Origin: an uncultured Trueperaceae bacterium
Lineage (GTDB): Bacteria > Deinococcota > Deinococci > Deinococcales > Trueperaceae
Reading direction: 5' to 3'
Assembly (NCBI GenBank): GCA_963815215.1
Contig: CAWFFU010000011.1
Span: 256,001-320,000 of the forward strand
DNA: 64,000 nucleotides
Both the position numbers and the translations under genes were made by a program. The notes under the pieces are model-generated. The model was not told the origin of the DNA, made no database searches, and was given only the letters and a program-made list of their open reading frames with translations. Positions 22,512-41,610 of the stretch are shown piece after piece; within the stretch, counting starts at the first letter, position 1; the number at the start of each line of letters is the position of its first letter.

Positions 22512-22515
22512 GCGT

Positions 22516-23563: not shown

Positions 23564-23598
23564 TGCATCGTTATCGGTAGCGTTGAATAATGCTGCGC
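23561..23598 (+). promoter_or_regulatory. Probable tandem ARG boxes (ArgR operator)
   Basis: AGTTGCATCGTTATCGGT and CGTTGAATAATGCTGCGC, two 18-mers with TGMAT half-sites, 2 nt apart, in an AT-rich patch overlapping the argG promoter. Confidence 0.55.
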
Positions 23599-23731
23599 TG
23601 CCGCAACGGAATCCGATGCGCAACGCCCTGACCCACCCCCGCGCCCGACGCTGAGCCGCTCTCCGGAGCGGATCCCAACTCGTGGCGACCCCCGGGGGTC
23701 GGATCGGGGCAGTGCTTTGCAGGAGGAACGC

Positions 23732-24970
<1,239 letters not shown>

Positions 24971-25004
24971 GCCGGCCGATCGCCCGGCCGTCGGCGGGAC
25001 CGCG

Positions 25005-25496
25005 GTGAGCTCGGTGGCGACCCTACCCTCCGTATCCGGCCGGACCGCCGCTACCGGCAAGGCGCGGCTGCGCTGGGCGGGGCTTCGAGATCTGCAGGCG
25101 CTGTGCACGCTGTTCCGCGCGGCGCGGCCCGAGCAGGCCAACGACGAGGCGGAGATGGCGTCATGGCTCGAGCACGGCGGTGCCATCGTCCTCGAAGCGG
25201 AAGGCAGGCCGCTGGCGGCGCTGCGCTGGCGCGAGGAGGGGCCGGGCTGGCGTGTGGACCCGGTCGCCAGCCTCCCCGAGGAACGGGGCATGGGGTACGG
25301 TCGCTGGCTGATGACGAAGGTCGAAGCGCACGCCATCCGCTCCAACATCCCTATCCTGACGGTCGAGCTGCCCTCCGGCGAAGCGCTGGCGTACTACCGC
25401 CGGATGGGCTACCGCAGACCCGATCCGGAGCGCGAGCCGACCACGCTGGTCAAACGCGTGGGGGGCACCTGGCAAGTCCAAGAGGGCGAGCGTTGA
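25005..25496 (+). CDS. GNAT family acetyltransferase
   Basis: [13 protein letters not shown] acetyl-CoA motif A; YYRRMGY. Confidence 0.75.
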
Positions 25497-26932
25497 GCGA
25501 CGATCCGTCCCGGGACCGGCAGGCCGGCGCCTCGGCGGCCAGCGACCGGCGCATGTGGGGCGGGCGCTTCAGCGAGCCGACCGACGCTCTGGTGCAGAGG
25601 GTCAACGCCTCGGTCGGTTTCGACCGTGCGCTGGCCGAGGAGGACATCGCCGGTTCGCTCGCTCACGCCGCCATGCTGGCCGACCGGGGCATCCTGAGCG
25701 CCGACGATGCCGACGCCATCCGCGCCGGCCTCGAGGCCATCGGCGAGGACATCCGCACCGGCGCCTTCGCGTGGCGCGAGGACCTCGAGGACGTCCACAT
25801 GAACATCGAGTGGGCGCTCACCGAGCGCATCGGGCCGGCCGGCGGACGGCTGCACACCGCGCGCAGCCGCAACGATCAGGTCGCCACCGACTTCCGGCTC
25901 TATCTGCGCCGCCGTCAACACAACCTGGAGCGTCTGCTCCACGCCCTTCGCGCCACCCTCGCCGACCTGGCCGAGCGCCACATCGATGTGATCATGCCGG
26001 GCTACACCCATCTGCAGGTGGCCCAGCCGGTGCGGTTGGCACACCACCTGCTGGCCTACGCCGAGATGCTCGGGCGCGACCAGGGTCGCCTGCGCGACGC
26101 CCGCGTCCGCATGAACGAGAGCCCCCTGGGGGCCGGCGCACTGGCCGGCACGGGCTTCCCCATCGACCGGCAGGGCACCGCCCGCGCGCTGGGCTTCGAC
26201 GCCCCCAGTGCGAACTCGCTCGACGCCGTCTCCGACCGTGACTTCGCACTGGAGACGCTGTCCGCGTTAGCCGTACTGATGATGCACCTGTCGCGGCTGA
26301 GCGAGGAGCTCATCTTGTGGTCGAGCCAGGAGTTCGGGTTCGCGACGCTCCCCGACAGCCACACCACCGGGAGCTCGATCATGCCGCAGAAGAAGAACCC
26401 CGACGTGTGCGAGCTGGTGCGCGGCAAGACGGGGCGCGTCTACGGCGCGTTGATGGGCCTGCTCACGGTGATGAAGGGTCTACCGCTGGCCTACAACAAG
26501 GACCTCCAGGAGGACAAGGAGGGCGTCATCGACGCCGCCGACACCGCCGAGGACGCGCTGCGCCTCTACCTCGACATGCTCCCGCGCGTCGCCTTCCATG
26601 CCGATCGCATGCGCTCCGCGGCGGCCAACGCGTTCAGCAACGCCACCGATCTGGCGGATTACCTGGTACGCAAGGGCCTGCCGTTCCGCGAAGCGCACCA
26701 TGTGGTCGGCGAGCTGGTGCGGCGGGCACTCGACGCCGGGCTCACCCTGGAGCAGCTGCCTCTGGAGACCCTGCGGGCCGCCAGTGACCGCATCGAGCCA
26801 GACGTCTATCCGGCGCTGGCGCTCGAGAACGTGGTGGATGCGCGCCAGAGTTACGGCGGGACCGCGCGGTCGCAGGTCGAGCACCAGATCGCGCGGCTGC
26901 GCCAGGCATTGCAGTCGGAGCCCGAGCCGTGA
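25493..26932 (+). CDS. argH: Argininosuccinate lyase
   Basis: [39 protein letters not shown]; start TTG 25493 or ATG 25553. Confidence 0.97.
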
Positions 26933-27507
26933 GCGTGCAGCAACCCCGCGAGGATCGTTCGCAGGCCGCCACCGTGACCGTGCGCCACGCCACCTCCGAG
27001 GACGTGCCGCTGATCTTCGACAACATCCGCCACTGGGCGGGCAAGGGTCGCATGCTGGTGCGCCCCATGCAGAACATCTTCGAGAACCTGCGCGACTTCT
27101 TCGTCGCCGAGATCGACGAGGGCGACGGTCCGACGTTCGCCGGCAACGGCGCCATCCACGTCCTGTGGGGCGACATCGCCGAGGTCCGCGGTCTGGCCGT
27201 CGCTCCGGGTATCCAGGCGCGCGGCGTCGGGCGGCGTCTGGTCGAGGCGTGCGAGGCCGAGGCCCGCCGCGTCGGCATCCCCGTGCTCTTCGCATGGACC
27301 TACGAGGTGGGCTTCTTCGAGCGCTGCGGCTTCGGCCTCATCGACAAGAGCCGCGACCTCCACCCCCGGGTGTGGTCGGAGTGCCTGCGCTGCCCGCTCT
27401 ACCAGGGCTGCAACGAGAACGGCGTGGTGAAGCGCCTGGACGGCGTGCCGATGCCGCGCAACCTGCCCGAGCCGCCGCCCGCGCAGGTGCCGCCCGGCAT
27501 CCTCTGA
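26929..27507 (+). CDS. Short ArgA-like N-acetyltransferase (GNAT)
   Basis: [37 protein letters not shown]....CNE, as in short N-acetylglutamate-synthase-like proteins found next to argH. Confidence 0.75.
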
Positions 27508-27639
27508 CGCCGGCCCCGTCCCCCGACGCAGGGGGCGGCCCACAAGCGGCGCCGCGCGGGCACGCACGGCGCCGCCGAGCTACACCACCCCCACCACCCT
27601 CCGGCACGCGCGGGGGCCCGCAGACCGTACAATCCCGGC

Positions 27640-28656
27640 GTGAGGCGTGACCGGCACGTAGCACTCATCCATACCGGCGGGACACTCGGCATGCGCCGCG
27701 GCCCGCGTGGCTTCGAGCCCGCCCGGGGCCATCTGGCGACGCTGCTCGAGCGCATGCCGGAGCTGGCGGACACGACCCTGCCGAGCTTCGAGCTCGTCGA
27801 GTTCGAGCCGCTCCTCGACTCCGCCGACGTCGAGCCGAGGGACTGGGAGGGCATCGCCCGCGCCGTCCGGGCGCGCTACGACGCCTTCGACGGCTTCGTG
27901 GTGGTGCACGGCACCGACACCATGGCCTACACCGCCTCGGCGCTCTCGTTCCTGCTCGACGGGCTCGCCAAGCCGGTGGTGCTCACCGGCTCGCAGATCC
28001 CGCTCGCCGAGCCACGCAGCGACGCGAGAGAGAACCTCGTCACCTCGCTGCTGCTGGCCGCCCGCGACGACCTGACCGAGGTGTGCCTGTACCTGAACGG
28101 CGTGATCCTGCGCGGCAACCGCAGCACCAAGATCTCGGCCAGCGGCTTCGACGCCTTCACCTCGCCCAACGAGCCACCCCTCGGCACGGCCGGCGTGACG
28201 TTGGCCCTGCGACGCGAGGGGTTGCGGCCGCCCCAGCCCGGTCCCCTCACCGTTACCCCTCTCGCCGACGTGTCGGTCGCCGCCTTACGACTCTTCCCCG
28301 GAGTGCGCTCGGACCTGCTGCGCACGCTCCTGGCGGCCCCCGTTGCGGGGCTGGTGCTCGAGACCTACGGCTCGGGCAACGCGCCGCAGCGCGACGAGGC
28401 GCTGTTCGAAGTGCTCGGCGCCGCCACCGCGCGCGGGACCGTGGTGGTCAACTGCACGCAGTGCCTGCGCGGCCGGGTCGACATGGGCGGCTACGTGGGC
28501 GGCGACCGCCTGCGCGAGGCCGGCGTCATCAGCGGGTTCGACATGACCGCCGAGGCCGCCCTGACGAAGCTCATCTGGCTGCTCAGCCTGGGGCTAGACC
28601 GCCCCGAGATCGAGCGCCGCATGCAGCGCGATCTGCGCGGCGAGCTCACCCCCTGA
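27640..28656 (+). CDS. ansA: Type I L-asparaginase
   Basis: HTGGTLGM, HGTDTMAYTAS, LTGSQIP, RGNRSTK, YGSGN. Confidence 0.93.
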   Translation: MRRDRHVALIHTGGTLGMRRGPRGFEPARGHLATLLERMPELADTTLPSFELVEFEPLLDSADVEPRDWEGIARAVRARYDAFDGFVVVHGTDTMAYTASALSFLLDGLAKPVVLTGSQIPLAEPRSDARENLVTSLLLAARDDLTEVCLYLNGVILRGNRSTKISASGFDAFTSPNEPPLGTAGVTLALRREGLRPPQPGPLTVTPLADVSVAALRLFPGVRSDLLRTLLAAPVAGLVLETYGSGNAPQRDEALFEVLGAATARGTVVVNCTQCLRGRVDMGGYVGGDRLREAGVISGFDMTAEAALTKLIWLLSLGLDRPEIERRMQRDLRGELTP

Positions 28657-28694
28657 GCCGCGCCGGACGCCGTGACCGGCTGTATGCTGACGCC

Positions 28695-29012
28695 ATGGAA
28701 ACGGTCACCCTCGCCCACAGACGCTCCTTCGGCGACGCCTTGAAGAAGGTCCCGCTGTTCGACAGCGAGCGCCTGTTGTTCGACCTCTACTGCCTGCAGC
28801 CCGGGCAGAGCCAACGCGTCCACAGCCACCGGGACGCCGACAAGGTGTACGTGGTGCTCGAGGGCGAGGCCCTCTTCGAGGTGGGCGGCGAGCAGGAGCT
28901 GCTGCCCGAGGGGAGCGCCGTCATCGCCCGCGCGGGCGAGGCTCACGGGGTGCGCAACGACTCCGCCGCCAGCCTGGTGCTGCTGGTGACGATGGCGCCG
29001 AGGCCTGCATGA
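28695..29012 (+). CDS. Cupin domain protein
   Basis: PGQSQRVHSH...KVYVVLEG...GEAHGVRN; TATGCT 6 nt upstream of ATG 28695. Confidence 0.85.
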   Translation: METVTLAHRRSFGDALKKVPLFDSERLLFDLYCLQPGQSQRVHSHRDADKVYVVLEGEALFEVGGEQELLPEGSAVIARAGEAHGVRNDSAASLVLLVTMAPRPA

Positions 29013-29440
29013 ACGCCTCGCCCCGGCTGCCCGCACCGCTCGGCGATCTGGCCCTGGACCACGTCGCGATCGCCGTCGAGACGCTGGACGCAGCCACGGA
29101 CGCCTATCTGGCGTTGGGGATGCGGCCGGCCGGCGACGACGAGACCATCGTGGAGCAGGGCGTCCGAGTCCGACCCCTGCGCCTGGGCGACACCCTGGTG
29201 GAGCTCATGGAACCGATCGCCCCCGAAGGACCGGTGGCCCGCTTCCTGGCCACGCGCGGGCCGGGCCTGCACCACATCGCGCTCAGGGTGCCCGCGCTCG
29301 AGCCTGTGCTGGCCCGTCTCCGGCAGCTCGACGCCCCCCTTCTCGACGAACACCCCCGCACCGGGCGCTCGGGGACGCGCATCGCCTTCGTCCATCCCCG
29401 CTTCACCCACGGCGTGCTCATCGAGCTCGTCGAAGCGTGA
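29009..29440 (+). CDS. mce: Methylmalonyl-CoA epimerase (VOC family)
   Basis: LDHVAIAV, EQGVRV, VELMEP, GPGLHHIA, IAFVHP...GVLIELVE. Confidence 0.85.
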   Translation: MNASPRLPAPLGDLALDHVAIAVETLDAATDAYLALGMRPAGDDETIVEQGVRVRPLRLGDTLVELMEPIAPEGPVARFLATRGPGLHHIALRVPALEPVLARLRQLDAPLLDEHPRTGRSGTRIAFVHPRFTHGVLIELVEA

Positions 29441-29570
29441 GCGCCGGCCGCTACCTCGCGGCCGGCCTGTGGCGAATACCCGACGGCGCGGCCGACGCCG
29501 ACGGATAGAATGGCGCCGTGACGCGAACCACCAACCCCAAGGTCCGCGCCACCGATGCGGAGTCGGCGGC

Positions 29571-30365
29571 GTGAGCACCATCCGACTCGCCATCGTGGGC
29601 GCCGGCAAGATGGGGGGCGCCGTACTGCAGGGAGCCCTGCGGGCCGAGGTGCTGTCGGCCGACGAGATCGGCATCTTCCATCCCAACCCGCGCCGCCTGG
29701 CCGAGCTCTCCGAGCGCTACGGCGTGACCGGCCTGGACGATGACGCGCTCCATCACGCCGAGCGCGTGCTGCTGTCGGTGAAGCCGCAGTCGTTCGACAG
29801 CGTGGCGCCGCTGGTGGCCCAGCGCAACGCCTCGTTCCTGTCGATCATGGCGGGCGTCACCGCCCGCACCATCGCCCGTCGCGTGGGCTCGCAGCGGGTG
29901 ATCCGCGCCATGCCCAACCTGGGAGCGAGCATGGGCGTGAGCGCCACCGCCCTGGCACCGCTGCCGGAGGCCACGGCCGAGGATCTGGCGATGGCCCGGA
30001 CCCTGTTCGGAGCGGTCGGTCGCGTCTACGACGTGCGGGAGGAGCTCTTCGACGCCTTCACCGGCCTCGCCGGCTCCGGTCCGGCGTTCGTCGCAGTGGT
30101 GGCGGAGGCTCTCGCCGACGGCGGCGTGCGTACCGGGCTCGACCGCGACACCTCGCGCGATCTGGCTCGGCAGGTGCTGCTGGCGGCGTCGCGGCTGCTC
30201 GAGTCCAAGCGCCCCAGCGAGCTCAAGGACGAGGTGGCGAGCGCAGGGGGTACGGCCATCGCAGGCATACGGGCGCTCGAGCGCCACCGGCTGCGCTTCG
30301 CCCTCATCGACGCCGTCGAGCAGGCGGCGGAGCGCGCAGCGGCGTTGAGTCGCGAGGACGCCTGA
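29571..30365 (+). CDS. proC: Pyrroline-5-carboxylate reductase
   Basis: IVGAGKMG, VKPQ, RAMPN, GSGPAF, VASAGGTAIAG. Confidence 0.95.
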   Translation: MSTIRLAIVGAGKMGGAVLQGALRAEVLSADEIGIFHPNPRRLAELSERYGVTGLDDDALHHAERVLLSVKPQSFDSVAPLVAQRNASFLSIMAGVTARTIARRVGSQRVIRAMPNLGASMGVSATALAPLPEATAEDLAMARTLFGAVGRVYDVREELFDAFTGLAGSGPAFVAVVAEALADGGVRTGLDRDTSRDLARQVLLAASRLLESKRPSELKDEVASAGGTAIAGIRALERHRLRFALIDAVEQAAERAAALSREDA

Positions 30366-30967
30366 TGACAGGGACGTCGGCGCCCGGCCGTGCGCGTTCC
30401 GCGGCGCTCGGGCTGTTGAGCGTCGCGCTGCTGGTGCTGCTGTCGGTCGGCCTCGCGGCCGATCCGCCCGGCTACTTCCCGGCCCGCGCGGGCATGAGCT
30501 GGACCTACTCCAGCGGCGAGACGCAACAGCTCGCCGGGCCGCGGCAGGTCGACGGCCACCAGGTCATGGTCCTCACGCACTACTTCAACGGCGTGCCGAT
30601 CTCCGAGGACTACCTGCAGTTCGGCCCGGACGGGGTGAAGACGCTCGGGACCGCGGCGGGAGGCAAGGTGACGCTCTACCCCACCCCGCTGACCGTCTAC
30701 CCCGCCGCGCCCCTGAAGCCGGGCGCACAGTGGCAGAGCACGACCAAGCTGCCGTCGTTCGACATCACGCTGTCGTCCGAGGTCCTGGGCGTGCGCGGGG
30801 TCAAGACGCAGGCGGGGCGTTTCAACGCCCTCCAGATCCGTCAGCGAACCCTCACCAGCAACGGCGCCAAGACCGTCATGGATCTGTTCTTCGTGCCCAG
30901 CGTAGGCATCGTGCGGTTCGTGACGCAGGACGGAACCACCATCGACCTGATCGACAAGAACTTCTGA
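30365..30967 (+). CDS. Secreted beta-rich hypothetical protein
   Basis: Signal peptide, YFP...WTY, V.T.AG.F, FVPSVGIVR pattern. Confidence 0.65.
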   Translation: MTGTSAPGRARSAALGLLSVALLVLLSVGLAADPPGYFPARAGMSWTYSSGETQQLAGPRQVDGHQVMVLTHYFNGVPISEDYLQFGPDGVKTLGTAAGGKVTLYPTPLTVYPAAPLKPGAQWQSTTKLPSFDITLSSEVLGVRGVKTQAGRFNALQIRQRTLTSNGAKTVMDLFFVPSVGIVRFVTQDGTTIDLIDKNF

Positions 30968-30974
30968 GGCTCGC

Positions 30975-32201
30975 TCAGCCGCGCCCCAGCAGCTCCGCCT
31001 TGAAGGCCGCGAAGCGATCGTCGGCCAGGCTGGCGCGGATGTCCTCCATCAGACGCGCCATGAAGCGCAAGTTGTGCACGCTCACGAGTTGCTGGGCGAG
31101 CTGCTCGTTGGCCTTGAACAGATGCCGCACGTAGCTCCGGCTGAAGCCCGTGCAGGTCGAGCAATCGCACCCCGCCTCCAGTGGCCGCAGGTCCTCGACG
31201 AAGCGCGCGTTGCGCAGGTTGAGGCGGAAGTTGGCGATCGGCTCGCCGTCGTCTCCGCGCCGCACGAATGCCGCGCCGTTGCGGGCGTTCCGGGTCGGCG
31301 CCACGCAGTCGAAGGTGTCCACACCCCGCTCGACGGCCTCGAGGATGCTCGGCACGTCGCCGATGCCCAGAAGATGCCGCGGTTTGCCCTCGGGCAACTC
31401 GGGCACCGTCCAATCGAGCACCGCGTACATGTCCTGGAGGGTGCTCCCCAGGTTCCCGCCGATCGCCATGCCGTCGAACGGCATGGCGGCGATGGTGGCG
31501 GCGCTCTCCCGGCGCAACCCCTGGAAGGCGCCCCCCTGCACCACCCCGAACAGGGCCTGCGGGTGAGCGTGCCTGGGCCCGGAGCTCTCGAACGCGCGCA
31601 GGCTGCGCTCGGCCCAGCGGTGCGTGCGCTGCATCGAGCGGCGCGTGTACTCCTCGTCGTGGAGCGGGCTGGTGCACTCGTCGAAGGCGAGCACCATGTC
31701 CGCGCCCAGGGCACGTTGCACGTCGATGGAGACCTCAGGCGAGAAGGTATGGAGGCTGCCATCGATGTGGCTCTTGAAGCGCACCCCCTCCTCGCGAATG
31801 CGCACCATCGAGCGGCCCCCTGGCAGACGCGGCGGCGCCTCGCCGGGGAAGATCGACGCCACCTTGCCGACGCCGTGCTCGATGGACGCGCCCAGCGAGA
31901 ACACCTGGAAGCCGCCCGAATCGGTCAGGATCGGGCCGTTCCAGTTCATGAAGCGGTGGAGCCCGCCGTGCCGCTCGACGACGTCGGCTCCCGGCCGCAG
32001 GTACAGATGGTAGGTGTTGGCGAACAGCAGCTGCGTTCCCGTGGCGGCCACCGCGTCCGGCGCCACCCCCTTGACCGCTGCCTGGGTGCCCACCACGACG
32101 AACGCTGGCGTGCGCACCGTGCCGTGCGGTGTCTCGAGCGTACCCAGCCGCGCCGCGCCGCGGCGCTGCTGGAGGGTGAAGGTCAGGGCATGCGTATCCA
32201 T
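30975..32201 (-). CDS. tgt: tRNA-guanine(34) transglycosylase
   Basis: NTYHLYLRPG, TDSGGFQVFS, DEC, GVVQGG, DTFDCVAPTR, CDCSTC...HN zinc site. Confidence 0.96.
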   Translation of the reverse strand: MDTHALTFTLQQRRGAARLGTLETPHGTVRTPAFVVVGTQAAVKGVAPDAVAATGTQLLFANTYHLYLRPGADVVERHGGLHRFMNWNGPILTDSGGFQVFSLGASIEHGVGKVASIFPGEAPPRLPGGRSMVRIREEGVRFKSHIDGSLHTFSPEVSIDVQRALGADMVLAFDECTSPLHDEEYTRRSMQRTHRWAERSLRAFESSGPRHAHPQALFGVVQGGAFQGLRRESAATIAAMPFDGMAIGGNLGSTLQDMYAVLDWTVPELPEGKPRHLLGIGDVPSILEAVERGVDTFDCVAPTRNARNGAAFVRRGDDGEPIANFRLNLRNARFVEDLRPLEAGCDCSTCTGFSRSYVRHLFKANEQLAQQLVSVHNLRFMARLMEDIRASLADDRFAAFKAELLGRG

Positions 32202-32383
32202 GGTGGCGGCCCGCCATCTTACCCGCTTCCCGCCGGCGGCAGCGTTCCGTCAGCCCCACGGCCGAGACGGGACAACGATCCCTCCCGGCACACCGTGACG
32301 CCGATGTTAAGCTCCTGTTTGGCGGATTTCACGTGTTCTCACCGACGAGCAGCGTAGTATGCACGTGTCGGGCAGGTCCCGAC

Positions 32384-32456
32384 CTTGGAAGCGATGAAGC
32401 CTGTCTCACCACGTGGGCGCTTGAGACGGGTGGAGCGAGTAGCGCAACCGGCCAAG
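32384..32456 (+). ncRNA. c-di-GMP-II riboswitch aptamer 1
   Basis: CTTGG-AAGCGATGAAG-CCTGTCTCA-ccacgTGGGCGCt-TGAGACGGG-TGGAGCGAGTAGCGCAACCGG-CCAAG: P1 cttgg/ccaag, kink-turn-type TGAA/GGAG, stem, pseudoknot GCGC/GCGC and AGTAG.GCAACCG tail, as in the class II consensus. Confidence 0.88.
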
Positions 32457-32573
32457 ATGAGTCACCCCTCATCGACAGCCTGACAGTGCCCACGAACGAC
32501 CCCTTCCGGGGTCGACCAGGGCGACCACGGTATCCGAGCCCGGTGCATCCGCGCCGCACGCAACGGTCCCGAG

Positions 32574-32648
32574 GCCTTGGACGCGATGAAACCTGTCCTG
32601 CACTTGGGCGCTTGGGACAGGTGGAGCGAGTAGCGCAACCGGCCAGGC
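32574..32648 (+). ncRNA. c-di-GMP-II riboswitch aptamer 2
   Basis: GCCTTGG-ACGCGATGAA-ACCTGTCCTG-cactTGGGCGCt-TGGGACAGGT-GGAGCGAGTAGCGCAACCGG-CCAGGC; same core as aptamer 1 with compensatory stem changes. Confidence 0.88.
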
Positions 32649-32718
32649 AGGTCCGCAGGTTTGCAGGCTTCCCATCGTCGGTCAGGCGCCCCGATCTCTT
32701 CGCGATGCGAGGATGGCG

Positions 32719-33720
32719 ATGGCGCAGATGAGCAACCAGCCGAGCCAGACACCTACACGGCGCACCCGCCGCCCCGGTCGGCATGCCATGATCGGTTTCT
32801 CCGCCATGCTGGCCGCGCTGCTGCTGGCCACCGGCTGTTCGGGCGTGGCCACCGAGCCGCCCCAGGCGGTCACGAACGCCACGGATGTCAGACCGATGTT
32901 CGGCGCCTTCACTTACGGCGGCGTCTGGCAGGGCATGCAACCCGTCCACCAGCTCGAGGACCTGCTCGGCCGAAAGCTCGACGTGGTGCACTGGTTCATG
33001 AGCTGGGACACGCCCTATGACGTTGCGCTGGTCGAGTCCGCCATGGCCGGCGGACGCCTGCCGATGATCACCTGGCAGCCCTACCACCAGTCCGTCAGCG
33101 ATATCGCCGCCGGCACCTACGACGACCTCATGCGGAGCTTCGCTCGCGGTGTACGCGCGACGCCCGGCCTCGTCTACGTGCGGCCCTTCCCCGAGATGAA
33201 CGGCGACTGGGAGCCGTGGAACGGGCAGCCCGCCGAGTTCGTGAAGGCGTGGCGTCGCATGGTCGACATCTTCCGCGCAGAAGGCGCCGACAACGTGCGC
33301 TGGGTGTGGTCGCCGAACATCACCGACCAGCCCCGCACGACCGCCAACGCCATGGAGAAGTACTACCCGGGCAGCGCCTACGTCGACGTCCTCGCCCTGG
33401 ACGGCTACAACTGGGGCACGTCGCAGGGCTGGAGCCAGTGGCGTAGCTTCGACCAGATCTTCGCCGAACCCTATGCCCGCATCACCGCTCTGGGCCCCCA
33501 GCCGGTGTGGGTCGCCGAGGTCGCCTCGACCAACAAGGGCGGCGACAAAGCGGCCTGGGTCGCGAACATGCTCAGCAGCACCAAGTTCCCTCGCATCCGC
33601 GCGCTGATCTGGTTCAACGAGAACAGCGACCTGGATTGGCGCCTGGACAATTCGCTGGCCGTCATCCAGGCCGCTCGCGCGAGCCTCACCCCGAGTCTGC
33701 AGACGACCGCCAGCCGCTGA
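32719..33720 (+). CDS. Glycoside hydrolase family 26 lipoprotein
   Basis: Lipobox LATGC; PMITWQP, IAAGTYD, RPFPEMNGDWEPW (acid/base Glu), WVWSPN, YYPG..YVDVLALDGYN, VAEVAS (nucleophile). Start 32713, 32719 or 32728. Confidence 0.9.
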   Translation: MAQMSNQPSQTPTRRTRRPGRHAMIGFSAMLAALLLATGCSGVATEPPQAVTNATDVRPMFGAFTYGGVWQGMQPVHQLEDLLGRKLDVVHWFMSWDTPYDVALVESAMAGGRLPMITWQPYHQSVSDIAAGTYDDLMRSFARGVRATPGLVYVRPFPEMNGDWEPWNGQPAEFVKAWRRMVDIFRAEGADNVRWVWSPNITDQPRTTANAMEKYYPGSAYVDVLALDGYNWGTSQGWSQWRSFDQIFAEPYARITALGPQPVWVAEVASTNKGGDKAAWVANMLSSTKFPRIRALIWFNENSDLDWRLDNSLAVIQAARASLTPSLQTTASR

Positions 33721-33787
33721 GGCTAGCCGGCCGAGCCCTTCGCGTCTCTGTCTCTGAACACGACCGCGCGCGCCACGCCACTTCGCG

Positions 33788-36595
33788 TCAGCGCGCGCTG
33801 GCCGTGTCCGTCGGCGCCACGACGGCGCGCGAGCCCCCCGAGAACAACCGCTGCTGGACCGCGCTGTACACCGCCCCGTCCTCGACCCCGTTCGCCGCCA
33901 CGATGGCGCTGCTGCGCCGGTACGCGGCGGCGAGGTCGAGCTTGCCGGAGGCGACCTCGCCGCTCAACGCCACCAGCTGCCGTTCGGGTGCGGCGAGCGA
34001 CGAAGGATCGACCCGGTAGGCGGCGTAGGCGCTGCCGAGTGCGTCGGCCAACGGGCCGAGGTGCACCATGGCCTCCACCGGCCCGCGCAGTTTCGGCGCG
34101 ACCCGGCCGCTGCGCGTTACGCCGTGCAGCGGATTGATGTACAGAGCGTAGGCGACGGCGTCGTCGGTGACGACCGGGCGCGCCAGCGACCACGCCAGTT
34201 TCGCCGCGCCGGCACAGACCGAGAAGTCGGGATCGAAGACGTTGAACGAGCCGCTCAGCAGGTGGGGATTGTACAGCGCGGAGTTCGGATCCTCCGAGAC
34301 CGCCCGCAGCAGCGTCAGCGCGTCGGACGTCATCTGCGACAGTCCCTTGTCGCCGGTCTCCCCTACCGCCAGGGGGTCGAGGTAGGACTCGTTGATCAGG
34401 ACCTGCAGCATGAGGCGCACCGGAACGTCGTAGGTCGAAGCCGCCTGCTCGATGTAGGGCTCGATCGGGGCGAGCCGGCCCAGCATGAGCAGCTCGAACG
34501 GGTCCAGTGGCTGGTAGGCGCCGGCCGAGCCCGGGAGCGGCTGCGGGGCGGCGCTGGGATGCCGTAGGAAGACCGGCCGGCAGTACGCGGACAGCGTGGA
34601 GATCGGCTCGAGCACGGACCCGGTGCCGGAGCCGGCCCTGGAGCCGGCCGCGGAGCCAGTCGCGGACGGCGCGAGAGCGGTCCGTGTCGCGGCACTGTCG
34701 GTCCGGGAGATCACGGCGAAGGCCCCGGGGGCCGCCAGCGCGACCGGCCCTGCCAGCGTGACGCGGACCTGTGGCGCCGTCAGCGACAGCGCAGGGAGCG
34801 GCGAAGAGCGGAGCGGCAGGGCGATCGAAGCCTGGAGCAGCGGGATGGTGGCGCTTTGGGAGCCCGGGCTCAGCAACGCGGGAGCCACCTGCGCGACCGG
34901 CAGCGGCAGGTCGTCGTGTTGCGCCATGTCGAGCGGGGTCGTGCGAGCCAGCAGCCGCTCGATCGCGAGCTGGTCGGCACCCGATGCGGGCGCCAGCGCC
35001 AGGATGGCCACGAACACCACCGACAGGGCGGCGACGATGGAGGCCGCCGTTCCAACGGTGCGGCCGTCGACACCCCGCGTGGTGGGCCGCTCCCACGCCA
35101 CGCCCTGCGTGCGCGTGACCACGCTGCGGCTCGCCGCGCGGCGTTCGGCCAGGAACGCCGGGATCACGCTGGTGGCCGCCGCCACGAAGCTGACGGGGTT
35201 GGCCACCTTGAGAACCATATAGGGCAACCACGTGCTGACCAGCCGTCGACCCGCGAAGCGCGCCGCGGAGCCGCGCCGCCGGCGACCGTCACGCGCCTGC
35301 ACGTAGAAGCCCGAGAAGGTCATGAGGCCGGTCGCTGCCAGGTCCAGCCCGAACCAGGTGGCCAGGATGCGCACCAGGTCGGTCGTTCCGATCGTTCCCG
35401 CCGCGGTGAGGGCCAGCATCACCGGCAGCAGCAGTAGCAACAGCAACCCCAACAGGTTCTCGACTTGCGCAGCCCACAGCGTGAAGCGCACGTTGGAGCT
35501 CATCACCCTGTCGCCCGGATCCCCCAGGACCCGTTTCAGGGCGTTCTGGATGCCGCCGCCGTTCCAGCGTTCGATCTGCCGCAGGTAGCCGCCGACGTGC
35601 GCGGGATCCTCGGTGTACATCAGCGCGTCGCCCACGAAGCGGGCGTTCCCGCCGTGACGAAGCTCGATCACGTCGTGGCGGTCGAAGGCCTCCTCGAAGG
35701 GCAGCTCGGCGCCGTCCACGACGATCCGGAAGCCGCGCCGGGTGAGCTCGGCGGGCGTCAGGCGCTCGTCGTGCCGCGGCACTCGCTGCGCCGTGAGCGT
35801 CAGGTCGTGGTCCTCGGTCTGGGTGTCGGGCGGCATGGGCAGGACGTTGCGCCGCACCACGAAGCCGCAGCCGACCACCGTGTACAGGCGGCTGGCCCCC
35901 CACAGGCCGCCGTCACCCAGCATGCCGGCCTGGCCCCGGCGCAGCACGGCGGCGAAGGCGTACTCGGCCGAGCGACCGGCCGCGATGAAGCGCTGGGTCG
36001 GCCCGGCCCCCTCAGGAACGTAGGACATCACGGACCCGGACTGGAGGGCGTAGTCCTCGAGCACGGGCCGGCCGGCGATCCAACGCAGGCGGTAGAAGTT
36101 CCTCTCGAGCGCGGCGACGAACTCCGGATCGAAGACCGTGTCGCCGTCCACCAGAAGCACGCGCTCGGAACTCAGGATGCGGCTCGCCACCAGGTTGTTG
36201 ATCGCCTCGGACTTGGCCGTCCGCTGCGCGTACACCACCACCGCCACGCCCATGGCGTGATCGTGGTGGCTCCAGCGTTCGAGCGTGGCGCTCAGCCCCG
36301 GGGCACGGCCGGCCGAGTCCAGCTCGAACCCGTGCCCGACCAGGGTCGCGCCGACGACCTCGTGGGTGCGGTCGGTCCCGCCGTTGATGCTGACGATGAG
36401 TTCGTCGGGCAGGCGGCGCTGCGACAGCAGCGACGTCAGCGCCCGCCTCGCTCCGACCTCTTCGTTGTACATCGGCGAGACGACCGCCAGCCTGTCGGGT
36501 CCGCGGACGGGCAGACTACGGTCAGGGACCGTACTGAGCGCTGCGTTGAGAAGGGTTGTGGGCATCCCGGACAGGCCGAAGAAGTTGGGCATCAC
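33788..36595 (-). CDS. Processive GT2 glycan synthase fused to C-terminal lytic-transglycosylase (SLT)-like domain
   Basis: SPMYNEE, KSEAIN, DGDT, TED and QIERW (D,D,D,QxxRW); several TM helices; Pro/Ala/Ser linker; then IEQAASTYDVP..LM.QVLINES.LDPLAVG..GDKGLSQM...FDP..SV.AGA..L. Confidence 0.85.
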   Translation of the reverse strand: MMPNFFGLSGMPTTLLNAALSTVPDRSLPVRGPDRLAVVSPMYNEEVGARRALTSLLSQRRLPDELIVSINGGTDRTHEVVGATLVGHGFELDSAGRAPGLSATLERWSHHDHAMGVAVVVYAQRTAKSEAINNLVASRILSSERVLLVDGDTVFDPEFVAALERNFYRLRWIAGRPVLEDYALQSGSVMSYVPEGAGPTQRFIAAGRSAEYAFAAVLRRGQAGMLGDGGLWGASRLYTVVGCGFVVRRNVLPMPPDTQTEDHDLTLTAQRVPRHDERLTPAELTRRGFRIVVDGAELPFEEAFDRHDVIELRHGGNARFVGDALMYTEDPAHVGGYLRQIERWNGGGIQNALKRVLGDPGDRVMSSNVRFTLWAAQVENLLGLLLLLLLPVMLALTAAGTIGTTDLVRILATWFGLDLAATGLMTFSGFYVQARDGRRRRGSAARFAGRRLVSTWLPYMVLKVANPVSFVAAATSVIPAFLAERRAASRSVVTRTQGVAWERPTTRGVDGRTVGTAASIVAALSVVFVAILALAPASGADQLAIERLLARTTPLDMAQHDDLPLPVAQVAPALLSPGSQSATIPLLQASIALPLRSSPLPALSLTAPQVRVTLAGPVALAAPGAFAVISRTDSAATRTALAPSATGSAAGSRAGSGTGSVLEPISTLSAYCRPVFLRHPSAAPQPLPGSAGAYQPLDPFELLMLGRLAPIEPYIEQAASTYDVPVRLMLQVLINESYLDPLAVGETGDKGLSQMTSDALTLLRAVSEDPNSALYNPHLLSGSFNVFDPDFSVCAGAAKLAWSLARPVVTDDAVAYALYINPLHGVTRSGRVAPKLRGPVEAMVHLGPLADALGSAYAAYRVDPSSLAAPERQLVALSGEVASGKLDLAAAYRRSSAIVAANGVEDGAVYSAVQQRLFSGGSRAVVAPTDTASAR

Positions 36596-36796
36596 GAAGT
36601 CCTATCCGTTGGAGCTCTTCCACTCGAGGGCGGCGGCGGGGGCGGGGCGCCGCACTTTCGTCGCGCCTGTCGGGCCGCGACGACCCGCTGTGAAACCTCT
36701 CGCTCTCTATGTAACACTGCTCTCCCCGCCCTGTTGTCCAGCCGTCACAGCCCTGTGCGCTGGGTGGTTTACGATCGTGTGATTTGGGAGGTGCGC

Positions 36797-37420
36797 ATGG
36801 CACTTCACATCAGCGGTAAGCTCGTGGCCGTAGGCCTCGTCCTGGCCGCACTGATCACCGCATTCAGCGCCCCCCGCAGCGTACAGAACGCGGGTGTCGC
36901 CTTGACCCTCACCCCAACCGCCACGGTCCTCACCACGCCTGCCTCGCCGGCGCCGCTGCGGGCCGGGTCGGTCGGGCCCGAGGCCAATCCTGTGTTCACG
37001 CTGCGGGCCACGGGTTACAACTCGATGGTCGACCAGACCGACGCCACCCCGTTCATCACCTCGACTGGACAGCGTACCCGTTTCGGGATCATCGCGGTGA
37101 GCCCTGACCTACTGGCCCACGCCCTGCCGTACGGCAGCCTGGTGCGCATCCGGGACCTCGGCAACTACTACACCGGCCGCGGCTACGGGCACTACCAGAG
37201 CCTGCTGGACGGCCAGGGACTGTTCATCGTCGAGGACACCATGCACTACCGCAAGCGCGATCAGATCGACATCTGGTTCAGCGACTACGCCAGCGCGGTG
37301 AACTGGGGCATGCGCAAGGTGAGCGTCGAGGTCATCCGTTATGGGCGCAACGGCCCCAAACTCGAACCCTCGCGTGCCAACGACTTCAGCGGGACACCGC
37401 AACTGTTCGCCTCGCGCTGA
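36797..37420 (+). CDS. 3D-domain (MltA-like Asp-Asp-Asp) cell-wall protein
   Basis: GGGAGG SD; N-terminal TM/signal; ATGYNS..QTD.TPFITSTG, IIAVSPDL, LPYGS.V, VEDTM, QIDIW. Confidence 0.85.
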   Translation: MALHISGKLVAVGLVLAALITAFSAPRSVQNAGVALTLTPTATVLTTPASPAPLRAGSVGPEANPVFTLRATGYNSMVDQTDATPFITSTGQRTRFGIIAVSPDLLAHALPYGSLVRIRDLGNYYTGRGYGHYQSLLDGQGLFIVEDTMHYRKRDQIDIWFSDYASAVNWGMRKVSVEVIRYGRNGPKLEPSRANDFSGTPQLFASR

Positions 37421-37561
37421 CGGCGCCGACCGGCCGCACTCGCAGCGATCGGTCCTCAACCCGCGGCCCCGGACCGCAGTGACGTCCGCGGATGTGGCGC
37501 GCGCGGCCGGCACGGGCCGGGGGCGTCTCCGGCAGCCTCAGGCCGCACGGTAGACTGGCCC

Positions 37562-38743
37562 GTGCGGAGCCTCGTACCGTACCTGGCGTGGCGGCACGTC
37601 CGCCGACGCGGCCTGCAATCCGGCCTCACCGTGGTCGGCGTGGCGGTCGGCGTCATGGTCCTGATCGTCGCGCTGTCGCTGACCAACGGCTTCGTGGACG
37701 AGCTGATCCGCAGCACCCTGAAGGCCACCCCCATGCTCACGCTCGAGAGCTACATCTCCGGGCAGACGGTGCCGAACGACCCCGCGGTCGGCCGGGCCCT
37801 GGCGGGTCGCCCGTCGGTCACTGCGGTCGCCCCCTTCCTCAGCACCCAGGCGCTCATCGCGCGGCGCGCCAGCGCCAGCCTCGGGATCACCGCCCGGCAG
37901 GGCTACACCCAGATCGTGGGCATCGACCCGGCGCAGGAGACGCAAGTCCTCGACCTGCCGATCCTCCAGAAGCAGGCGACGGCCCTGGCCCGGCGGGACG
38001 GCATCGTGCTGGGCGCCTCGCTGGCGCAGCAGCTCGGCGTGATCGCAGGGGACAAGGTGGTGCTGCGCGACATCACGGGCCACACCGCCGAGCTCACCGT
38101 GGCAGGCACCTTCCGCGTCGGCAACGAGCTCATCGACGGGATCGCGTCGTACATGTCGCTGGCCAACCTGCAGCAGTACATGCACGTGGGGGACCGGATC
38201 AGCGGCTACCACTTGCGACTGGCCGACCCGCAGCGCGCTTCGGCGCTCGGTGTGACGCTCGGCGACGCCTTCGGCCTGCGCCCGGTCTCCTGGGACAGCC
38301 TGTTCGCCAACCTCATCAGCCAGCTCCGCCTGCAGAAGGCGGTCATCGCGGTGGTGGTGTTCCTCATCGTCCTTGTCGCCGCCATGGGGATCGCCAATAT
38401 CCTGGTGTTGACGGTATCGGAGAAGACCGAAGAGATCGCCATCCTGCGGGCGCTGGGCGCTACCGAGCGGCAGGTGCTGGCCGTCTTCACGCTGGAGGGG
38501 CTGCTGCTCGGCGCCACCGGCACGCTCCTGGGAGCCCTCCTCGGGCTGGGCGTGAGCACCTACTTCCGTCTGCAGCCCTACCCCCTGCCGGGCAACCTCT
38601 ACTTCATCACCCAGCTCCCCGTGCAGCTCCAGCCGACCGACGTGCTGTGGGTATGCGCGCTGTCGATCGGCACCAGCGTGCTCGCCGGGCTCTTCCCCGC
38701 GCGGCGCGCGGCCAACCTCGACCCCGTCGACGTCCTGCGCTGA
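37562..38743 (+). CDS. LolC/E (FtsX-like) ABC transporter permease
   Basis: GVAVGVMVLIVALSLTNGF, VSEKTEEIAILRALGA, LYFITQLP, PARRAANLDPVDVLR. Confidence 0.88.
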   Translation: MRSLVPYLAWRHVRRRGLQSGLTVVGVAVGVMVLIVALSLTNGFVDELIRSTLKATPMLTLESYISGQTVPNDPAVGRALAGRPSVTAVAPFLSTQALIARRASASLGITARQGYTQIVGIDPAQETQVLDLPILQKQATALARRDGIVLGASLAQQLGVIAGDKVVLRDITGHTAELTVAGTFRVGNELIDGIASYMSLANLQQYMHVGDRISGYHLRLADPQRASALGVTLGDAFGLRPVSWDSLFANLISQLRLQKAVIAVVVFLIVLVAAMGIANILVLTVSEKTEEIAILRALGATERQVLAVFTLEGLLLGATGTLLGALLGLGVSTYFRLQPYPLPGNLYFITQLPVQLQPTDVLWVCALSIGTSVLAGLFPARRAANLDPVDVLR

Positions 38744-39375
38744 TGGACCGGAGCGCTCCGCTCGACCGGGACCGGGCCTGGACCTACTTGCTCGATCTGC
38801 TGACGCGGCGCGACTACACCGAGGCCGAGCTGCGGGCCAAGCTACAGCGCAGGAAGGTGGACGCCGACGTCGCCGACACTCTGCTCGCGCGTTTGCGCGA
38901 GCTCGGTCTGGCCGACGACGCACGCTACACCGAACACTACGTGGCCTCGCGCCGGCGCTCCCGCGGCCGCCTGGCGCTGCGAACGGAATTGCGCCGCAAG
39001 GGCGTCGACCCCTCTGTCGTCGAGCGTGAGCTCGAGCCGCTCACGGAAGGGCAGCAGCTCGAGGCGGCGGCGGCGCTGTTGCGCCGCTTCGCCTGGCGCT
39101 ACCAGCCCGGCAGCACGCGCCGGCGGCGCACCGCGACCCACGCCCAGGAACCCGAGAAGGAATCCGCGTCGGCGCCCGGCACGCCGTCGGGCTCGGGTGC
39201 CGACGCGGGCCGGGACGCGAGCCGGGACGGGGGCCGCGACGCGGAGGCGCAGGCGCGACGCGACGCCCTCGCCGAACGCGCCCGCGCCTTCGCCTTCCTG
39301 GCCCGGCGCGGCTTCACCGGCGCGGTGGCCGGCGACGCGATCCGCGTGCTCGGCTGGTGGCAGGACGCGTCCTGA
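38743..39375 (+). CDS. recX: Regulatory protein RecX
   Basis: LL.RRDYTEAELRAKL, L.DDARY, G..ALRTELRRKGV, AFLARRGF; low-complexity insert before the last repeat. Confidence 0.85.
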   Translation: MDRSAPLDRDRAWTYLLDLLTRRDYTEAELRAKLQRRKVDADVADTLLARLRELGLADDARYTEHYVASRRRSRGRLALRTELRRKGVDPSVVERELEPLTEGQQLEAAAALLRRFAWRYQPGSTRRRRTATHAQEPEKESASAPGTPSGSGADAGRDASRDGGRDAEAQARRDALAERARAFAFLARRGFTGAVAGDAIRVLGWWQDAS

Positions 39376-39416
39376 GCGGGCCGCTGCGGGGCGCGTCGAA
39401 GCCGGCGCCGCGCGCC

Positions 39417-39445
39417 TTGACCCCCCGGCCCGGGGCTAGTAGAGT
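39417..39445 (+). promoter_or_regulatory. tRNA-Pro promoter
   Basis: TTGACC, 17 nt, TAGAGT. Confidence 0.7.
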
Positions 39446-39457
39446 TGTTAGTTGCGT

Positions 39458-39535
<78 letters not shown>

Positions 39536-39537
39536 AC

Positions 39538-39573
39538 CGCGGGACCTCCACTCGAACGGAGGTCCCGCGTTCT
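39538..39573 (+). terminator. Hairpin downstream of tRNA-Pro
   Basis: CGCGGGACCTCC / GGAGGTCCCGCG 12-bp stem followed by TTCT. Confidence 0.65.
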
Positions 39574-39612
39574 CATCGCGCATTCTCGCGCCCCGTTCGC
39601 GCGCCTCGTTTC

Positions 39613-40044
39613 TCAGGGCTCGCTCCCCGTCGGCGCGTCGAGCAGCGCCAGCGTGCAGCGTGAGACGCACACCAGCCGTCCCGCCTCGTCGCGGATCTCC
39701 ACGCTCCACAGCTGGGTGCTTCGCCCCAGGTGGAGTGGCGTCCCCACCGCCGTCAACGTCCCGTCTCGCACCGACCGCAGGTGGTTGGCGTTGATCTCCA
39801 GGCCCACCGCGCGCCGGCGCGCGGTGTCGATGCTCACCGTGGCGCCGTAACTCGCGACCGTCTCGGCCAGCGCCACGGACGCCCCACCGTGCAGGATGCC
39901 GTACGGCTGGTGGTGCGCCGGGGTCACCGGCATGGTGGCCACGACCCGCTCCGGGGTCGCCTCCGTGATGACGATGCCCAGCGTCTCCATCAGTGTGTCG
40001 GGCTGCGTTCCGAGGATCGGGATGGAGCGGGCGTGCTCGGCCAT
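39613..40044 (-). CDS. PaaI/MenI-type hotdog thioesterase
   Basis: [36 protein letters not shown]. Confidence 0.92.
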
Positions 40045-40134
40045 GCTGCCAGGCTACACCTTGCTATACTGTCCGCCGTTGACCCGGGCGGGAGGTGACA
40101 TCACCGCCCCGGGCGCTCTCTCGAGGAGGCCCCC

Positions 40135-41052
40135 GTGTCCCGTGCCAACAGCATCCTCCCTCCAACCACGCTGGGCCCGACGCTGCTCGCCGGCGTGGCG
40201 CTCGGGCTCGTCGCCGCGCTCGGCAACGGGCTGTTGTGGCGGCTGTCGCAGTTCGGGCGGCACCCGTACCCGGTGTTGCCGGTCACGCTGGTCGTCCTGT
40301 TCGGGTTGCTGTTCACCGGCCTGCTGATCGATCTGACGTCGGGACTGCGCGCCCGCCGGGCCGCCGTGGCCCTGCTCGCCGCGCTGGCCGCGGGAACCCT
40401 GGCCGCGATCGTCGTGCCCTTCGCCGAACCGCGCTACGCTCTGGCGCCCCTCGCTGCTGTGGCCGCGGCGGCGCTTCTGCGCTCGGGCGCGCGCCGGAAC
40501 TCGGTGATGCTCGGCGCCATGGCCGTCTACGTAAGCTGCACCCTGCTGGCCAACTACACGTTCGACAGCTTCCTTCCCGTCGGGGGGTTCTTCCTGCTCA
40601 ATGTCGGCACCCTGTTCTTCGGCGTCACCTTCACGCAGCGCGATCGCGTCCACGGCTTCGGGCGTCGGGCCGTGTACGCCATGATCCTGGCCGCCGCCGT
40701 CGCCAACGTGGCGCTGTCATCGCACCTGGGGACCCCGCTGCGCTACGTGGCGGTGAGCTTCCTGTCGATCGTACTGTCCGAGACGGCCGACACCGAGATC
40801 TACCAGCGCCTCATCCACCGCCGCTGGATCACCCGCGTGGCCACCTCCAACGCCGTCAGCGCTCCCATGGACACCCTCATCTTCACGTTCCTGGCGTTCC
40901 TGGGGCAGGACTTCGCCACACCCCGCTGGTTCGTGCAGGTGATCGCCACGGACATCGTCGTGAAGTACGCCAGCAGCATGATCGCCGCCACCCGAATGCT
41001 CGATCTGCCGAAGGTGCTGGCACGGCGCGCCGCATCGATCGACGCCCCCTGA
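40135..41052 (+). CDS. Queuosine-precursor transporter, VUT/YhhQ family, with extra N-terminal TM helices
   Basis: LLANY...GTLFFGVTFTQRD, SETADTEIY, RVATSNAVSAPMDTLIF.FLAF, VKY; GAGGAGG SD. Confidence 0.75.
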   Translation: MSRANSILPPTTLGPTLLAGVALGLVAALGNGLLWRLSQFGRHPYPVLPVTLVVLFGLLFTGLLIDLTSGLRARRAAVALLAALAAGTLAAIVVPFAEPRYALAPLAAVAAAALLRSGARRNSVMLGAMAVYVSCTLLANYTFDSFLPVGGFFLLNVGTLFFGVTFTQRDRVHGFGRRAVYAMILAAAVANVALSSHLGTPLRYVAVSFLSIVLSETADTEIYQRLIHRRWITRVATSNAVSAPMDTLIFTFLAFLGQDFATPRWFVQVIATDIVVKYASSMIAATRMLDLPKVLARRAASIDAP

Positions 41053-41123
41053 GCGGACGTCGCCGCTGGTAGGCTGTCATGAGGCCCGACGCCGCCGTGA
41101 CGGGCGGACCCGATAGGAGCTCC

Positions 41124-41585: not shown

Positions 41586-41610
41586 GTGCGCCTGGGCGGT
41601 GGGCGCTCGC

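Follow-up and report, generated by a model that had tools for sequence, protein, structure and literature searches.

Why would a cell read the same messenger twice on the way to a single gene? The question is raised by one leader in a stretch of 64,000 nucleotides (nt) from an uncultured Trueperaceae bacterium (assembly GCA_963815215.1, contig CAWFFU010000011.1, positions 256,001 to 320,000 of the forward strand), a stretch that we call, at its full length, the window and whose first letter is position 1 throughout. In this leader, on the + strand between the start of tgt at 32201 and the start of a putative lipoprotein gene of glycoside hydrolase family 26 (GH26) at 32719, stand two aptamers for c-di-GMP (cyclic diguanosine monophosphate), both of class II (c-di-GMP-II). 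In other words, what could a second copy of a sensor do that the first does not? The best explanation overall, which we favor with modest confidence, is that the two are switches in series and that together they would turn the GH26 gene OFF when c-di-GMP is abundant.

The first issue is whether the aptamers are what they seem. An earlier note, made from the letters alone, had proposed two tandem c-di-GMP-II aptamers here, and a covariance-model scan of all 64 kb, on both strands and against 4227 Rfam families, bears this out, with two matches to RF01786 (c-di-GMP-II) above its gathering score of 53.5 bits:

32378-32462, + strand: c-di-GMP-II aptamer 1 (RF01786, 64.4 bits, E 4.4e-12)
32384-88 with 32452-56, + strand: helix P1 of aptamer 1
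32412-32420, + strand: pseudoknot loop of aptamer 1, CGUGGGCGC
32573-32653, + strand: c-di-GMP-II aptamer 2 (RF01786, 71.0 bits, E 5.7e-14)
32576-80 with 32643-47, + strand: helix P1 of aptamer 2
32606-32611, + strand: pseudoknot loop of aptamer 2, GGGCGC

The copies are 195 nt apart, start to start. Each match covers the whole model (positions 1-84 of 84), RF01786 is the top-scoring model of clan CL00127 at both sites, and elsewhere in the window Rfam matches nothing but three tRNAs. The cmscan alignments show the junction and core nucleotides GAUGAA, UGGGC, GGAGC, AGU and GCAACCGGCC in both copies, and an alignment of related aptamers has them invariant or nearly so. The smaller details of the earlier note are also in place: the blocks GCGATGAA, TGGGCGCTT and GTGGAGCGAGTAGCGCAACCGGCCA shared by the two copies, the stem halves CCTGTCTCA/TGAGACGGG in one and CCTGTCCTG/TGGGACAGG in the other, and GGTCCCGA ahead of each. 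Both copies are full members of the Rfam c-di-GMP-II family, and about their identity and tandem arrangement we have next to no doubt.

That note had also remarked that the pseudoknot reads GCGC/GCGC rather than GCAC/GTGC, a difference that alignment makes easy to understand. We counted covariation over 144 distinct aptamers, both window copies among them, for which the search pattern had fixed part of the 3' pseudoknot strand. The helices P1, P2 and P3 and the pseudoknot together hold standard pairs in 92.7% of cells, as against 75.3% in shuffled alignments and 30-40% when strands are slid; two-sided change occurs in 17 of the 22 pairs, and the covariation score reaches 0.518, compared with 0.187 +/- 0.006 in shuffles and at most 0.125 in slid controls. 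The pseudoknot columns are 99.4% paired and three of their five pairs covary: seven sequences have A-U where others have G-C, and the fifth pair is U-A in 106 sequences and C-G in 30. Judged from these columns, GCGC/GCGC is a compensated version of the Rfam consensus GCAC/GUGC.

Is the doublet an accident of one genome? To judge by its relatives, it is not. A scan of a genome collection with the 22-nt aptamer core shared by the two copies, a sample thus restricted to aptamers with that exact core, gave at least 121 loci, 80 of them with 2.5 kb of flanking DNA and the other 41 with about 300 nt. Among the matches listed, most are from Trueperaceae or other Deinococcota, and a minority are from Thermus, from Rossellomorea and other Bacillota, from Thermomicrobia and from others. 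A hidden Markov model (HMM) built from 142 distinct aptamers found at least 119 distinct arrays in the listed loci, window included, of which 91 are singlets and 28 are doublets with a spacing of 147-229 nt, start to start; no triplet was found by this search among the 119. In a tblastn search with the window's GH26 protein, a homologue of 50-82% identity (about 55% in Truepera radiovictrix) lay directly 3' of the aptamer or aptamers in at least 29 contigs. One of these contigs has two paralogues, each with its own doublet, so that with the window there are at least 31 GH26-linked leaders: 19 doublets, 11 singles and one (L061) cut by the start of its contig. When 20 GH26-linked loci were scored by Rfam at the gathering threshold, 40 hits resulted, RF01786 was the best-scoring clan member at all 40 sites, and doublets appeared in 18 of the 20, one locus having two; L061 is cut, as noted, and L039 has one copy above the threshold and its upstream copy below.

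Among the matches listed, GH26-type doublets keep a fairly constant spacing of 156-203 nt, start to start, and the closest relative of the window's leader, that of L117, is almost identical to it. Genomes of T. radiovictrix (L004 and L064) also carry a doublet, although the window's organism, to judge by these similarities, is a Trueperaceae member other than T. radiovictrix itself. The two copies are also of recognizable types, the upstream with …CGUAYNUGGGCGCUUGA… and the downstream with …CUGCAYNUGGGCGCUUGG…, and the single-aptamer leaders carry the loop context of the second type, ...GCAnnUGGGCGCUUGG. These types, and the agreement of the singlets with the second, therefore point to one old duplication, retained in many Trueperaceae. 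As far as such comparisons reach, the doublet and its association with the GH26 gene are conserved.

The same loci gave some observations of their own. On the contig listed as L075/L076, adjacent GH26 paralogues each have a complete doublet (at about 2447-2717 and 4012-4285 of L075). Elsewhere (L072, L043, L004, L064, L011, L054 and L045), a second GH26 paralogue follows the first and no aptamer was found between them. Trueperaceae also have another kind of doublet (L015, L047, L077, L067, L040 and L053/L063), in which the second aptamer is ~150-206 nt from the first, one copy has a low HMM score and a GCAUC/GAUGC pseudoknot (A-U for G-C), and the doublet lies upstream of small proteins of about 145-177 amino acids with no Pfam family. 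Among the open reading frames (ORFs) behind non-GH26 doublets, no Pfam family was found except VanW/G5 in L049.

The gene that the leader would serve is the following:

32719-33720, + strand: GH26 glycoside hydrolase, the regulated gene, with likely start ATG 32719

The ORF itself is 32713/32719-33720, with a G+C content at third codon positions (GC3) of 0.90; we take ATG 32719 as the start codon because a Shine-Dalgarno (SD) sequence, GAGGA (32709-32713), lies 6 nt 5' of it. The protein matches Pfam PF02156 weakly (E 1e-10) and PDB 2bv9 ('Endoglucanase H') and related entries strongly (E 4.6e-55, residues 68-322), and both glutamate motifs align with those of 2bv9, PEMNGDW with HEANGDW and VAEVAS with IAEFAS. 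By this comparison, the product has a GH26 domain of the lichenase-like branch. The aligned glutamates are presumably the catalytic pair, and the 2bv9 domain we take to be the Clostridium thermocellum lichenase CtLic26A. The name CtLic26A does occur in the reference list of one paper (PMC6556568). The N-terminus of the window's GH26 protein (…LLLATGC…) looks, by eye, like a lipoprotein signal.

If the aptamers are to act together, they should be on one RNA. Ahead of aptamer 1 stand three features:

32327-32333, + strand: box TTTCACG, possibly a -35 or regulator site, 21 nt before the -10-like hexamer
32355-32360, + strand: -10-like hexamer TAGTAT, with TAnnnT in the same column of 19/19 tandem leaders
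32367-32383, + strand: hairpin GUCGGG-CAGGU-CCCGAC, abutting P1 of aptamer 1

The hexamer is the one that the earlier note had picked out, and its column is kept in all 19 aligned leaders. By eye, TTTCACG aligns in the same 19 with TTCACAC / GTCATAAC-type boxes, and the place of the hairpin is held by hairpins of variable sequence, for example AGGGAGC/GCUCCCU and ACGAGG/CCUCGU. A promoter scan of 32150-33900 found no sigma-70-like consensus, TTTCACG lying outside sigma-70 spacing; between the aptamers there is no credible ORF and no promoter-like site, and no TAnnnT-like box is seen by eye before aptamer 2 in the 19 aligned leaders. That such a box is seen upstream of aptamer 1 only supports a single predicted transcript, with a start near 32367, that would cover both aptamers.

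To what do the aptamers pass their signal? After aptamer 2 the order is a segment of GCAGG repeats, a C-rich element (element 2), a hairpin with the SD sequence and then AUG 32719, which is overlapped by GGCGC:

32648-32679, + strand: switching segment of three GCAGG repeats and CCAUCGUC, with alternative pairings in predicted folds
32684-32692, + strand: element 2, AGGCGCCCC, complementary to the aptamer 2 pseudoknot loop and to GGCGC at the start codon
32697-32713, + strand: hairpin UCUUCGC-GAU-GCGAGGA holding the SD sequence GAGGA, in all three folds

The AUG follows the end of aptamer 2 by 66 nt as Rfam draws that end and by 70 nt as nhmmer does, and three predicted folds describe what may happen in between. 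When aptamer 2 and its platform are free to fold, the minimum-energy structure is something other than the aptamer, namely a long helix of the aptamer's 5' half with the GCAGG/CAUCG segment, in which the switching segment pairs with GCGAUGAA-CCUGUCCUGC of aptamer 2 and the SD sequence has an unpaired probability of 0.03. When the platform is folded alone, the SD sequence is again in its hairpin, and CCAUCGUC pairs with GGCGAUGG (32715-32722) over the AUG; the earlier note had suggested just such a pairing of CCATCGTC at 32672-32679 with GGCGATGG at 32715-32722, both of which are present. In the whole-leader fold, element 2 pairs instead with GGCGC at 32721-25, a sequence that resembles the aptamer loop. 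The resemblance goes further in the single-aptamer relatives, where the 3' strand of the SD hairpin is GGGCG or GGGCGC, the same letters as the loop.

The duplex of loop with element 2 has a predicted energy of -18.8 kcal/mol, better than 96% of same-length chunks of coding sequence from the window, and in 20/30 leaders the equivalent duplex is within the best 10% of such controls (four leaders having <=7 of them). Accessibility was compared in 30 of the 31 GH26-linked leaders, L070 being left out for its ambiguous start codon. In the window, the unpaired probability from -14 to +3 is 0.35 with the aptamer free to misfold and 0.19 for the platform alone, and 91% of 43 other ORF starts in the window are less structured than this initiation region (0.36 +/- 0.12 vs its 0.19). 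By eye, L117 and the second leader of L076 preserve the CCAUCGUC:GGCGAUGG pairing; L030 does not do so column by column, and in the first leader of L076 a shifted pairing of 11 bp covers the AUG in its place. We think it probable that aptamer 2 has a translational platform, as the earlier note had proposed; the predicted folds, the 66 nt that separate aptamer from AUG and the local hairpin around GAGGA are all consistent with one.

Loop complements are not a general property of the class. We considered a perfect complement, G[CT]GCCC, as a feature of class-II aptamers at large and rejected it, because a strict search downstream of every aptamer found it in 45/133 units only. The pattern appears to hold mainly in the GH26-linked leaders rather than for class-II aptamers of this core type generally.

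After aptamer 1, where there is no gene to translate, a similar arrangement is found. The order here is a hairpin with a C-rich loop, element 1, a G+C-rich hairpin and then GGGCG (32519-32523):

32456-32473, + strand: hairpin GAUGAG-UCACCC-CUCAUC with C-rich loop, directly 3' of aptamer 1 (predicted fold)
32486-32494, + strand: element 1, GUGCCCACG, complementary to the aptamer 1 pseudoknot loop CGUGGGCGC
32497-32514, + strand: G+C-rich hairpin CGACCCC-UUCC-GGGGUCG, no U tail (predicted fold)
32542-32555, + strand: small linker hairpin GGUGC-AUCC-GCGCC (predicted; by eye, GGUGCG/CGCACC at the same place in L117)

In relatives, an equivalent of the first hairpin has, by eye, a changed stem (UCGAGU/ACUCGA) and again a loop rich in C. 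The third feature had been noticed in the earlier note, and its base can be extended by pairing GCCC (32488-91) with GGGCG (32519-23), an extended form that is seen in a predicted fold. RNAalifold, applied to 21 aptamer-1 regions, recovered the aptamer helices only, because the hairpins beyond them were misaligned, and so the 21 sequences were folded separately; a hairpin after element 1 is then predicted in 21/21 tandem leaders, with stems that differ, and at -10 kcal/mol or better in 20 of them. Over the same 21 leaders, 84.0% of cells in the helix of loop with element 1 are paired, whereas sliding one strand leaves 25-58%. Two-sided change is seen at two pairs (C-G/U-A and C-G/G-C), the window's clade has CGU/ACG where another has UCU/AGA, and the covariation score is 0.276 against 0.208 +/- 0.017.

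That this module is conserved suggests that it probably has an output of its own, an idea that we hold tentatively and at somewhat less than even strength. What might the output be? In the 50 nt after aptamer 1, C exceeds G in 19/19 leaders, with a mean skew of +0.24 compared with +0.02 after aptamer 2; in the window the skew is +0.375 against a background of 0.02 +/- 0.16, and such a C-rich tract suggests Rho loading. The hairpin suggests, as another route, a terminator without a U tail. An intrinsic (Rho-independent) terminator was considered as the platform of aptamer 1 and rejected, the hairpin having no U tract. As the earlier note had said, no U-tailed terminator is visible, and none was found in 32150-33900. 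U-tailed terminator-like sites are not enriched in this DNA in any case (seven in 22000-41999 vs 4.4 +/- 2.2 in shuffles), and their absence therefore says little; termination may take other routes.

Two further items concern the linker. By eye, a kissing pair of GUCCC, in the C-rich loop of the hairpin after aptamer 1, with the GGGAC beyond aptamer 2 suits several clades; the window's clade does not fit it, and the idea was dropped. In most tandem leaders outside the window's clade (L072, L080 and L020, for example), a near-invariant hairpin, GCCCGA-NNNNU-UCGGGC, lies between the aptamers; its 3' strand resembles the aptamer loop (GGGCAC or GGGCGC), and it is absent from the window's clade.

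We can now say how the leader might work. Each aptamer would have its own module, composed of a C-rich element that can pair with the pseudoknot loop (GGGCGC), a hairpin and a G-rich copy of the loop. Without c-di-GMP, the loop would capture the C-rich element. With c-di-GMP, the loop would be locked in the aptamer's own pseudoknot, and the element, together with the CCAUCGUC segment, would be left to close over the G-rich copy. Since, in module 2, this copy shares sequence with the ribosome-binding site and with AUG 32719, translation would fall. Module 1, having no start codon, would probably act earlier, on the elongation or the fate of the transcript, by means of its hairpin and its C-rich, G-poor tract. 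Two switches for the same ligand, set in series, could then give a tighter and steeper repression at high c-di-GMP. We read the direction, on which the earlier note was silent, as OFF because the C-rich element can pair either with the loop or with the loop-like G-rich sequence at the ribosome-binding site, and on these predicted pairings we judge it somewhat more probable than its opposite that c-di-GMP represses.

Several results weigh against this account. The leaders are related to one another, and counts of them are not independent. No systematic shift in SD/AUG accessibility was found over the 30 leaders (mean -0.01, five being more open with the aptamer free and nine less), a comparison that is weak either way because the pairing of loop with element is a pseudoknot and lies beyond the folding program. 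The SD hairpin forms in both modeled states. The fold energies of platform and linker are not unusual against shuffles (z = +0.28 and z = -1.25, respectively), and the two-sided changes (two) in the helix of loop with element 1 were reached by 433/500 shuffles. In the T. radiovictrix-like clade the complementarity of element 1 is weak, with 8-9 cells unpaired at three positions, and the hairpin of module 1 is followed by no U tract either here or in any of the 21 leaders. Finally, in the available text of one review (PMC11477304), all characterized class-II riboswitches of Clostridioides difficile are ON switches.

That last point is also one reason to suppose that the same parts work with the opposite sign, c-di-GMP turning the gene ON because, for example, folding of the aptamer withdraws a segment that closes the ribosome-binding site. 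High c-di-GMP would then bring production of the glucanase along with that of the matrix polysaccharide, and it is in keeping with this that a large GT2 glycosyltransferase gene adjoins the GH26 gene, the C-terminal part of its product being encoded likewise beside a GH26 homologue in five related loci (L020, L018, L023, L076 and L035). An SD hairpin that is stable by default in both modeled states is what one would expect of a switch that must be opened, and the nine of 30 leaders whose SD region the unconstrained fold leaves less accessible lean the same way. An ON switch, however, leaves the loop-complementary elements and the loop-like sequences at the SD or AUG without a role, and once the window's aptamer is taken to be folded, the segment so released covers the AUG by pairing, which is the OFF direction. 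We consider ON a real possibility but an unlikely one.

Repression could also be arranged as a competition network, in effect an AND gate with one ligand, in which two C-rich elements are contested by four G-rich copies of one motif, namely the two pseudoknot loops, the GGGCG that follows the first hairpin and the start codon's GGCGC. Both aptamers' loops would have to be locked by c-di-GMP before the elements could close the ribosome-binding site; a half-occupied leader would be partly open, the freed GGGCG of module 1 still being able to hold element 2, and the first stage might expose a C-rich tract for the loading of Rho. We rate this design as improbable. If it were true, it would be the first class-II c-di-GMP riboswitch shown as an OFF switch, built from mimics of the aptamer's own pseudoknot strands.

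Need the two aptamers be two switches? They might be one cooperative sensor with a single platform, like the tandem glycine riboswitches, aptamer 1 having no output of its own. Neither a start codon nor a U-tailed terminator follows aptamer 1, and the spacing of GH26-type doublets is fairly constant, as would suit such a sensor. The linker, though, is long (about 110 nt) and has in 21/21 leaders its own conserved element and hairpin module, which mirrors the module after aptamer 2; 11 related leaders make do with a single aptamer, and c-di-GMP-II tandems are classed with multiple expression platforms in PMC9481103 (Table 1 text). We give one cooperative sensor little chance. Least probable is that the ligand is not c-di-GMP but, for instance, some other cyclic dinucleotide, in the manner of variant riboswitch classes: the altered pseudoknot and the existence of two orphan variant models in the same Rfam clan (RF03169 and RF03170) invite the thought, but the parent RF01786 is best of clan at both window sites and at all 40 in relatives, the pseudoknot change is compensatory and the strongly conserved consensus positions are all kept in the cmscan alignments.

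Serial OFF switches, then, are the reading with which we continue, and we ask how much of it is new. Tandem c-di-GMP-II riboswitches have been published, as 59 doublets and nine triplets (Sherlock et al. 2022, RNA Biol, PMC9481103), and the window's doublet therefore adds an example to a known kind of RNA and a known arrangement. As far as the accessible text of that paper goes, the published tandems are mostly found before a gene for a surface-anchor protein (COG4932) in Paraclostridium and its relatives, and tandems for the same ligand are expected to sharpen or steepen the response. Like the window's, they are complete class-II aptamers in series in one leader, two or three to a set. Unlike them, the present doublets are found in Trueperaceae (Deinococcota, with 70% G+C in the window's case), precede a gene for a GH26 glucanase-like lipoprotein and have no U-tailed terminators.

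A second study (Microb Genom 2025, PMC12452182) reports, in its searchable text and tables, that tandem riboswitches of the c-di-GMP family are enriched in Deinococcota, which is the same phylum and the same general arrangement, and T. radiovictrix is in its list of genomes. It pools class I, class II and variants as one family; no gene or mechanism is named for the Deinococcota cases in those searchable parts, and the supplement lists genomes and models and no class-II loci. The C. difficile riboswitches, again by the available text of PMC11477304, share the aptamer family and a place upstream of surface- or matrix-related genes; they are single aptamers, which either switch transcription ON or work by way of a group I ribozyme, whereas here there is a doublet, with a putative translational platform, that is probably OFF. 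Bc3-5 of Bacillus thuringiensis (Sci Rep 2016, PMC4759541) is, in the part of the paper at hand, also a series of complete c-di-GMP riboswitches in one 5' untranslated region, and it is a triple tandem of c-di-GMP-I (GEMM-I), a different and unrelated aptamer class, in Bacillota. In a literature search that extended to the main text of PMC9481103 and not to its supplement, no paper was found on these Trueperaceae leaders or on their link to GH26.

The new points are the bacterial group that carries the doublet, the gene that it would regulate, how deeply the arrangement is conserved and the elements that complement the loops. Why might this matter? The leader would tie c-di-GMP signaling in the little-studied Trueperaceae to a concrete output, a surface enzyme that resembles a beta-glucanase, and the large glycosyltransferase gene beside the GH26 gene suggests that an extracellular glucan is what is controlled. 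Among the matches listed, one gene family has 19 leaders with a doublet and 11 with a singlet, a natural comparison set for the contribution of a second aptamer. The loop-complementary elements suggest a simple design that is open to testing by mutation. If the switch does repress, the known range of class-II c-di-GMP riboswitches will have been broadened.

The surroundings are those of an ordinary chromosome, with a G+C content of 70.3% over the window and genes such as gyrA, argG, tgt, ribonucleotide reductase, purH, ffh and rpsP. The tgt gene (30975-32201, - strand) is divergent from the GH26 gene. Convergent with it, at 33788-36595 (- strand), is the glycosyltransferase gene already mentioned, which encodes a protein of 935 amino acids that has a GT2 glycosyltransferase domain at its N-terminus and an SLT lytic-transglycosylase domain at its C-terminus; this protein and the GH26 enzyme may act on the same extracellular glycan. 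Between the GT2-SLT gene and a divergent gene for a LolC/E-like permease, there is a gap of ~970 nt (36596-37561) that holds no ORF of coding-like GC3; over the region 36500-37700, Rfam at E <= 1 gave nothing, and the small ORFs fell into no Pfam family.

Farther away, two large ORFs of coding-like composition, 19980-22511 (+ strand, 843 amino acids) and 45824-47920 (+ strand, 698 amino acids), have no Pfam family at E <= 0.01. The three tRNA genes found by Rfam are at 39458-39531 (+ strand), 44030-44101 (- strand) and 54871-54944 (+ strand), and just 5' of the first of them, at 39417-39445, is a promoter-like TTGACC-17-TAGAGT.

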